Shown here piece after piece: positions 8,535-54,993 of a stretch of 64,000 bases of DNA. The stretch lies in the NCBI RefSeq assembly GCF_030013595.1, contig NZ_CP122768.1; one strand, written 5' to 3'. The DNA is from Escherichia coli. Its GTDB lineage: Bacteria > Pseudomonadota > Gammaproteobacteria > Enterobacterales > Enterobacteriaceae. The translations under genes were made by a program, and so were the position numbers. A model generated the notes under the pieces. That model was not told where the DNA came from. It worked only from the letters and a program-made list of their open reading frames with translations, and did not search any database. Positions within the stretch are counted from its first letter, which is position 1, and each line of letters opens with the position of its first letter.

Positions 8535-8609
<75 letters not shown>

Positions 8610-27213: not shown

Positions 27214-28245
27214 ATGTCTGCATTTACCCCGGCAAGTGAAGTCTTGCTGCGTCACAGTGATGATTTCGAACAAAGCCGTATTCTTTTTGCCGGAGACTTA
27301 CAGGATGACCTGCCCGCGCGTTTAGATACCGCGGCCAGCCGTGCTCATACCCAGCAATTCCACCATTGGCAGGTGTTAAGCCGCCAGATGGGGGATAACG
27401 CCCGTTTTAGTCTGGTCGCCACGGCGAATGATGTCGCAGATTGCGATACGTTGATTTACTACTGGCCGAAGAACAAACCGGAAGCCCAGTTCCAGTTGAT
27501 GAATTTACTTTCTCTGCTGCCGGTGGGCACGGATATTTTTGTCGTTGGCGAGAACCGCAGCGGCGTGCGCAGCGCCGAGCAGATGCTGGCAGATTATGCG
27601 CCGTTGAATAAAGTGGACAGCGCTCGTCGCTGTGGCCTCTATTTTGGTCGTCTGGAAAAACAGCCGGTGTTTGATGCCGATAAATTCTGGGGCGAATACA
27701 GCGTCGATGGCCTGACGGTCAAAACGCTGCCGGGCGTGTTTAGCCGCGACGGTCTGGATGTCGGTAGCCAGTTGCTGCTCTCGACGTTAACTCCGCACAC
27801 GAAAGGTAAAGTGCTGGATGTCGGCTGCGGCGCGGGCGTGCTTTCGGTTGCCTTTGCGCGCCATTCACCGAAAATTCGTCTCACTCTGTGCGATGTCTCT
27901 GCGCCAGCGGTAGAAGCCAGCCGCGCAACACTTGCGGCCAACGGTGTTGAAGGTGAAGTCTTTGCCAGTAACGTCTTTTCCGAGGTGAAAGGTCGTTTTG
28001 ATATGATCATCTCCAACCCGCCGTTCCACGATGGGATGCAAACCAGCCTCGATGCGGCGCAAACGCTGATTCGCGGCGCGGTGCGTCATCTTAATAGCGG
28101 CGGCGAGCTGCGAATTGTAGCGAACGCCTTCCTGCCTTATCCGGACGTGCTGGATGAGACATTTGGCTTCCACGAAGTGATCGCGCAAACCGGGCGCTTC
28201 AAGGTGTATCGCGCCATTATGACCCGCCAGGCGAAGAAAGGTTGA
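27214..28245 (+). CDS. rsmC: 16S rRNA m2G1207 methyltransferase
   Basis: 343 aa; methyltransferase motifs ([15 protein letters not shown]). Confidence 0.95.
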
Positions 28246-28295: not shown

Positions 28296-28444
28296 TCTCT
28301 GACCGACAAACGAATTATCCACAATCCGCTGATGGACATTTTTCCAGCAATTACACCTCCGGCGATAATTAACTATTGACGAAAAGCTGAAAACCACTAG
28401 AATGCGCCTCCGTGGTAGCAATTCTTTTTAAGAATTGACGGTAT

Positions 28445-28531
28445 GCGAAGGTGGCGGAATTGGTAGACGCGCTAGCTTCAGGTGTTAGTGTCCTTACGGA
28501 CGTGGGGGTTCAAGTCCCCCCCCTCGCACCA
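28445..28531 (+). tRNA. leuQ: tRNA-Leu (CAG)
   Basis: 87 nt GCGAAGGTGGCGGAATTGGTAGACGCG...CCTCGCACCA; anticodon loop UUCAGGU. Confidence 0.95.
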
Positions 28532-28559: not shown

Positions 28560-28646
28560 GCGAAGGTGGCGGAATTGGTAGACGCGCTAGCTTCAGGTGT
28601 TAGTGTTCTTACGGACGTGGGGGTTCAAGTCCCCCCCCTCGCACCA
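28560..28646 (+). tRNA. leuP: tRNA-Leu (CAG), single-nucleotide variant copy
   Basis: Identical to flanking copies except GTGTTCTT versus GTGTCCTT in the variable arm (C to T, preserves pairing as G-U). Confidence 0.9.
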
Positions 28647-28680
28647 AACGAGGCGATATCAAAAAAAGTAAGATGACTGT

Positions 28681-28767
28681 GCGAAGGTGGCGGAATTGGT
28701 AGACGCGCTAGCTTCAGGTGTTAGTGTCCTTACGGACGTGGGGGTTCAAGTCCCCCCCCTCGCACCA
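28681..28767 (+). tRNA. leuV: tRNA-Leu (CAG)
   Basis: 87-nt copy identical to the first. Confidence 0.95.
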
Positions 28768-28805: not shown

Positions 28806-29042
28806 TCATCCCTGTTTCAAATTCATTATCATCAGCATGATGCCAGCAATAAGCGCCAGGCACGATGGCAGCAAAACGTAATGCCGCAACTGTTTGTGAT
28901 ACAGCATCACCGGCGTCAATACTAATCCCATCAGAATGACAATCCGCCACTGATCCGGCGATAAATCCGCATACATCAGCCCTGCAATCAGCAATCCCGG
29001 CAGCAACACTCCCCAGCCACTGCCCAGCATACGTTGCAACAT
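28806..29042 (-). CDS. yjjZ: Small membrane protein YjjZ
   Basis: 78 aa from internal Met MLQRMLGSGWGVLLPGLLIAG...; divergent from fhuF. Confidence 0.6.
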   Translation of the reverse strand: MLQRMLGSGWGVLLPGLLIAGLMYADLSPDQWRIVILMGLVLTPVMLYHKQLRHYVLLPSCLALIAGIMLMIMNLKQG

Positions 29043-54916: not shown

Positions 54917-54993
54917 AGCGCGGTGCGGATGTGCGCCAACACACCCGCACCGCTCATCACAATCACTATTCCAGGAGAATAGCAGTTATGACT
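54917..54993 (-). ncRNA. symR: SymR antisense sRNA (approximate, placed from K-12 knowledge)
   Basis: In K-12 a 77-nt antisense RNA overlaps the symE 5' UTR and start codon; coordinates inferred, not read from sequence signals. Confidence 0.3.

Follow-up and report, generated by a model that had tools for sequence, protein, structure and literature searches.

The stretch of DNA analysed here (64,000 nt of the E. coli contig NZ_CP122768.1, referred to hereafter as the window) contains four tRNA genes, three of which were placed by ARAGORN on the + strand as co-oriented tRNA-Leu(cag) genes. The array and the features around it are listed below in order.

27214-28245, + strand: rsmC, encoding the 16S rRNA m2G1207 methyltransferase, the conserved upstream neighbour (open reading frame; annotated there in all fetched E. 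coli loci)
28376-28403, + strand: promoter-like site, TTGACG, 16 nt and TAGAAT, then the G+C-rich GCGCCTCC (consensus scan, 10 of 12 matches)
28420-28436, + strand: perfect 7-bp inverted repeat AATTCTT-TTT-AAGAATT in the 5' leader (read from the sequence; kept in the aligned E. coli loci)
28445-28531, + strand: copy 1, leuQ, tRNA-Leu(CAG) with C at nt 48 (ARAGORN, Rfam, alignment; its trailer CCAAAAACC is that of leuQ in PMC2190699)
28532-28559, + strand: spacer 1, 28 nt (sequence)
28560-28646, + strand: copy 2, leuP, tRNA-Leu(CAG) isodecoder with T at nt 48 (ARAGORN, alignment; its trailer CCAAACGAG is that of leuP)
28607, + strand: the variant base, T where copies 1 and 3 have C, giving U48·G55 in the variable-arm stem (alignment, fold energy)
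28647-28680, + strand: spacer 2, 34 nt, with an A7 run of strain-dependent length (sequence, aligned loci)
28681-28767, + strand: copy 3, leuV, tRNA-Leu(CAG) with C at nt 48 (ARAGORN, Rfam, alignment)
28806-29042, - strand: yjjZ, encoding a DUF1435 protein of 78 aa, the downstream neighbour, convergent with the array (open reading frame; annotated in all fetched E. coli loci)

These genes form the leuQ-leuP-leuV operon of E. coli. Its chromosomal context is the one expected, with rsmC upstream of the array and yjjZ, fhuF and bglJ downstream, and in the fetched E. coli loci the genes run in the order holD (-), rsmC (+), three tRNA-Leu genes, yjjZ (-), fhuF and bglJ. A 551-nt query spanning the array found matches in 5425 of 5426 complete E. 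coli genomes, with the annotation tRNA-Leu (x3) followed by yjjZ. A 24-kb query matched E. coli chromosomes from end to end at 98-98.6% identity, and the two queries taken together gave identities of 98-99.6%. The trailers (CCA-AAAACC in copy 1, CCA-AACGAG in copy 2) both lack a U right after CCA, as was reported for leuQ and leuP of K-12. Since they match the leuQ and leuP trailers of PMC2190699, the three copies are, in order, leuQ, leuP and leuV; the name leuQPV, which a sequence-only reading of this DNA had given the array, was correct.

The 87-nt sequence of copy 2 is identical to K-12 leuP, including the T at nt 48, and the spacers, trailers, promoter hexamers and the neighbours rsmC, yjjZ and fhuF are all the same. 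When the window was aligned with 12 E. coli leuQPV loci, only one leader base and a few bases downstream of leuV differed, and none of these differences fell inside the tRNAs. At 28439, which precedes the mature 5' end of leuQ by 6 nt and comes shortly after the leader hairpin at 28420-28436, the window has C and the 12 aligned loci have T (GAATTGACGGTAT versus GAATTGATGGTAT). The sequence of the promoter-like site is identical in every aligned E. coli locus, and the site is the putative promoter of the operon. In K-12, leuQ-leuP-leuV is transcribed as a single polycistronic RNA from which the tRNAs are separated by RNase P (Mohanty and Kushner, PMC2190699). By analogy with K-12, leuQ, leuP and leuV of the window would be made as one precursor from the site at 28376-28403 and cut apart by RNase P.

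Alignment of the three 87-nt copies left 86 of 87 columns invariant. Column 48 alone differs, reading C, T and C in copies 1, 2 and 3, and in copy 2 it corresponds to window position 28607 (28492 and 28728 are the matching positions of copies 1 and 3). The sequence-only reading had placed a C to T substitution in a middle copy at 28560-28646, had described copies 1 and 3 as identical and had proposed that the change converts a C-G pair of the variable-arm stem to U-G. Coordinates, direction and pairing all agree with our results; on the cloverleaf, nt 48 lies opposite G55.

To describe the effect on structure, a cloverleaf was written by hand and both sequences were evaluated on this same constrained structure. 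Its stems are acceptor (1-7/77-83), D (10-12/24-26), anticodon (28-32/40-44), variable-arm (46-49/54-57) and T (60-64/72-76). The 15-nt variable region (nt 45-59), with its 4-bp stem and 4-nt loop, is that of a class II tRNA. The four pairs of the variable arm are 46-57 (G-C), 47-56 (U-A), 48-55 (C-G or U-G) and 49-54 (C-G), so that in leuP it is the third pair of the stem that changes from C-G to U·G. The constrained cloverleaf had an energy of -30.0 kcal/mol with C48 and -27.1 kcal/mol with U48, making the U form about 2.9 kcal/mol weaker, and the isolated variable-arm hairpin gave -5.2 (C) and -2.3 (U). Unconstrained minimum free energy folding of the whole 87-nt RNAs produced no cloverleaf for either variant. 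Nor did the Rfam tRNA model separate the two forms, for each of the three tRNA-Leu(CAG) copies scored 48.5 bits; the model presumably leaves the long variable arm unscored. All three copies also have an A·C mismatch at the fifth pair of the acceptor stem (nt 5/79; 28449 with 28523 in copy 1).

The T form is the usual state of the middle gene in E. coli. T in the middle copy with C in the outer copies was found in K-12 MG1655 (NZ_CP010441.1), E. coli B and CFT073, and likewise in CFSAN061771, RIVM_C037166, 03_3013 and SY038; besides K-12, B and CFT073, five further E. coli had T in the middle copy. The exact 87-nt T variant was found in 4536 of 5429 complete E. coli records and a query of spacer 1 plus the T variant again returned 4536 records; as these two queries test slightly different things, the figure is taken as about 84% and not as an exact count. 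The one-base difference of leuP is already documented and is not private to this strain. In K-12, leuP has been reported to differ by one nucleotide of the variable loop (PMC12472396), and a tRNA-seq preprint on K-12 lists "(leuP), (leuQ leuT leuV)" as separate sequence classes (bioRxiv 10.1101/2020.02.21.958157). A figure legend in PMC2190699 calls the leu genes identical, which is a simplification. A phrase search of the early RNA-sequencing literature for two CUG-reading tRNA-Leu species one base apart returned only the unrelated Takai 1994, on UUN codons.

These data bear on the suggestion of the sequence-only reading that the T might be a sequencing error, and on the related possibility of an assembly error, for instance a base mis-called in a repeat that was collapsed or polished with mixed reads. 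Repeats of 87 bp are prone to assembly errors, and there are obvious errors in the run of eight C residues (C8) in the public assemblies 25DN, ET474, Z1814 and 2015C-4136CT1. One assembly of MG1655 (NZ_CP025268.1) has C in the middle copy together with a 9-C run in copy 3, which indicates that single assemblies can be wrong or divergent at this locus. Against an error in the window, the T at 28607 is exactly what the species consensus predicts, K-12 MG1655, B, CFT073 and others, assembled independently, carry it in the same copy, at least 12 other genera have it in the orthologous gene (see below), the leuP difference is in the literature, and the C8 runs of all three window copies are intact at eight C. 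We give an error at 28607 almost no chance, and the suggestion was not borne out. The comparisons show instead that the leuP difference is real, inherited and old.

The C8 run spans the T arm and the acceptor strand and is recorded with 5, 6, 7 or 9 C in some public E. coli assemblies. These length differences are either homopolymer sequencing errors or real slippage; the run is an indel hotspot in mismatch-repair-defective lines (PMC8510543).

The age of the difference is apparent from its distribution beyond E. coli. An exact-pattern scan for the T form, using one genome per species and selecting on the T allele, yielded at least 120 loci. Among these were at least 31 three-gene arrays with the C-T-C order, at least 18 two-gene T-C arrays (mostly Xenorhabdus and Photorhabdus), at least nine two-gene C-T arrays (mostly Proteus and Morganella) and at least 40 loci at which a single T-form gene occupies the leuT position of the Arg-His-Leu-Pro operon. 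Among the loci listed, C-T-C arrays were seen in Escherichia albertii, Escherichia sp., Salmonella enterica subsp. arizonae, Citrobacter, Klebsiella, Raoultella, Kosakonia, Pseudocitrobacter, Pseudenterobacter, Phytobacter, Intestinirhabdus and Enterobacter sp. In at least 12 genera of Enterobacteriaceae the C-T-C order is accompanied by orthologous spacers and by rsmC upstream. When 42 arrays were tested by tblastn, rsmC was directly upstream and co-oriented in 41, including those of Xenorhabdus, Proteus, Morganella and Photorhabdus, the rsmC proteins of Morganellaceae being 54-58% identical. The one array in which rsmC was not found, that of Klebsiella spallanzanii, comes from a locus with too little upstream DNA. 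Spacer 1 is near-identical in E. albertii, Salmonella arizonae, Citrobacter, Klebsiella, Phytobacter and Intestinirhabdus, and both spacers are recognisably orthologous between genera in alignments. Because orthologous spacers and an upstream rsmC are shared across genera, the array and the T of its middle gene predate the divergence of these genera. On this evidence from aligned sequences, the rsmC-linked array with a middle T already existed when Escherichia diverged from Salmonella, Citrobacter, Klebsiella, Raoultella, Kosakonia and other genera.

Taken as a whole, the best explanation is that the middle gene is leuP, a standard minor isodecoder with a substitution that would be near-neutral, and that the window carries the array in its common C-T-C state. 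We put the probability of this reading at about 0.93, and no observation speaks against the identification of the gene.

The sequence-only reading had also proposed that the substitution could mark gene conversion dynamics, and for the species this part of the proposal stands. The following other arrangements were verified from sequence in E. coli.

C-C-C: O55:H7 RM12579, ETEC H10407 and one MG1655 assembly (which also has a 9-C run)
C-T-T: Nissle 1917 and ATCC 25922
T-T-C: FHI_NMBU_03
C-C, two copies: O157:H7 TR01 and ECCTRSRTH03
T-C, two copies: 2015C-4136CT1
Single C: O157:H7 Gim1-1, O157:H7 Z1814 and strain 109
Single T: EcPNK004

Both the placement of the marker and the number of copies vary in these strains, yet the flanking spacers are unchanged, which is the pattern of gene conversion and unequal crossing-over. 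At most 62 E. coli records carry T in the third copy, and 61 carry it in the first. A query with C next to spacer 1 returned 563 records, made up of about 431 collapsed arrays without spacer 1 and at least 132 full-length C copies; counts by identity band are to be read with this in mind, as partial but perfect matches score 99% or more in genomes that lack the spacer context. Given the varied arrangements in other strains, nt 48 naturally marks where gene conversion and unequal crossing-over have acted on the 87-bp repeats. Homologous recombination between these repeats would sometimes convert the site or collapse the array in other E. coli lineages.

The window itself is another matter. If the T had arisen only recently and in this strain alone, by point mutation or by gene conversion, the evidence that conversion and unequal crossing-over do occur at this locus would supply a mechanism, but the window has the C-T-C arrangement that is both the majority state and the ancestral one. 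No event need be invoked to explain such a state, and so the proposal of the sequence-only reading fails for this strain; we regard a recent, private origin as very improbable.

In O157:H7 the leuQPV array is down to one gene and in several other strains to two. As a result of array collapse, the dosage of tRNA-Leu(CAG) genes varies between E. coli lineages. The three all-C copies of O55:H7 fit a course of events in the O157:H7 lineage in which homogenisation came before collapse.

Another gene for the same tRNA species, leuT, lies outside the array in the argX-hisR-leuT-proM operon, and its processing goes through RNase E (PMC2190699). The E. coli leuT sequence is that of copies 1 and 3, with C48. 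In contrast, the genes with the T form at the leuT position, in at least 40 loci as noted above, all come from outside E. coli and include those of Escherichia whittamii, Klebsiella, Enterobacter, Citrobacter, Morganella and Xenorhabdus. At leuT, many genera have the T form in addition to the array or in place of it.

Is the substitution of any consequence? According to a review of the E. coli enzyme, LeuRS recognises A73 and the tertiary core formed by the D and T loops, and the variable arm is not an identity element, its sequence and folding being uncorrelated with leucylation (PMC9976931). Because LeuRS ignores the variable arm, a change from C-G to U·G is unlikely to affect charging, and because the anticodon arm is unchanged, CUG decoding should stay the same. 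Both RNAs would thus be charged by LeuRS and decode CUG alike, and the U48 substitution is probably near-neutral in function. Lineages of E. coli that lack the T form thrive, O157:H7 with its single C and O55:H7 with C-C-C. That these two do without T, O157:H7 with only one gene at the locus, argues against a strong requirement for it.

The persistence of both states across Enterobacterales could instead mean that they are selectively maintained. C48/U48 would then be an ancient dimorphism kept by selection, with a distinct property of the U48 isodecoder in stability, modification, RNase P processing, fragment production or kinetics with EF-Tu or the ribosome. Both states persist at orthologous positions across the order although recombination homogenises the copies within one species, and the T form moves between the rsmC-linked array and leuT. 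In Morganellaceae, the C48 and U48 forms share a derived acceptor stem (a G·U pair, G5 with U at its partner) and still differ at nt 48. The evidence for this reading, however, is a scan selected on the T allele, whose 120 or more loci give no fraction of species without T, and the E. coli lineages that succeed without any T include H10407 as well as O157:H7 and O55:H7. Moreover, a change from C to U opposite G is the mildest possible in a stem and can recur, variants at neighbouring positions (GUCU and others) are present in some genera among the loci listed, and LeuRS ignores the arm in any case. We consider maintenance by selection unlikely and favour a near-neutral isodecoder.

The window contains other RNA genes at some distance from the array. 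The fourth tRNA, tRNA-Gly(tcc) at 8535-8609 on the - strand (ARAGORN; 65.6 bits with the Rfam tRNA model), is some 20 kb upstream of leuQPV. In the best-matching strain, E. coli 200177, the corresponding DNA is a lambdoid prophage by yjjG with an integrase and an AIPR-family gene, and there is no tRNA at the place that corresponds to tRNA-Gly(tcc). The window's gene is probably prophage-borne. Rfam also identified a C4 antisense RNA at 17145-17232 (-; 83.6 bits) adjoining an isrK Hfq-binding RNA at 17257-17333 (-; 67 bits); these RNAs are typical of a phage immunity region and are consistent with a prophage. A SymR antitoxin RNA lies at 54917-54993 (-), with a full-length Rfam match of 93.5 bits.

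For the window, these results mean that the base is correct and the operon a textbook leuQPV, whose annotation needs nothing beyond naming the middle gene leuP. For the species, nt 48 is a built-in recombination marker for the tandem tRNA-Leu genes, and E. coli lineages vary both in how many copies they have (3, 2 or 1) and in which isodecoders these encode. Two sequences, rather than one, are to be expected when tRNA-seq reads are mapped or the quality of an assembly is judged at this repeat. That both forms have lasted across a bacterial order poses the small question of whether bacterial isodecoders ever differ functionally.

The tandem array resembles other known systems. Tandem tRNA genes of bacteria undergo concerted evolution and unequal recombination, as in valV-valW and tyrT-tyrV; a literature search on concerted evolution of such genes returned nothing relevant. 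Such genes have near-identical copies with short, unique spacers, and recombination alters their copy number and the copy that carries a marker, as it does here. The leuQPV array differs from the concerted evolution of other tandem tRNA genes in that its marker stays in the same copy across many genera, which suggests that homogenisation is slow relative to divergence at the level of the genus or that selection opposes it.
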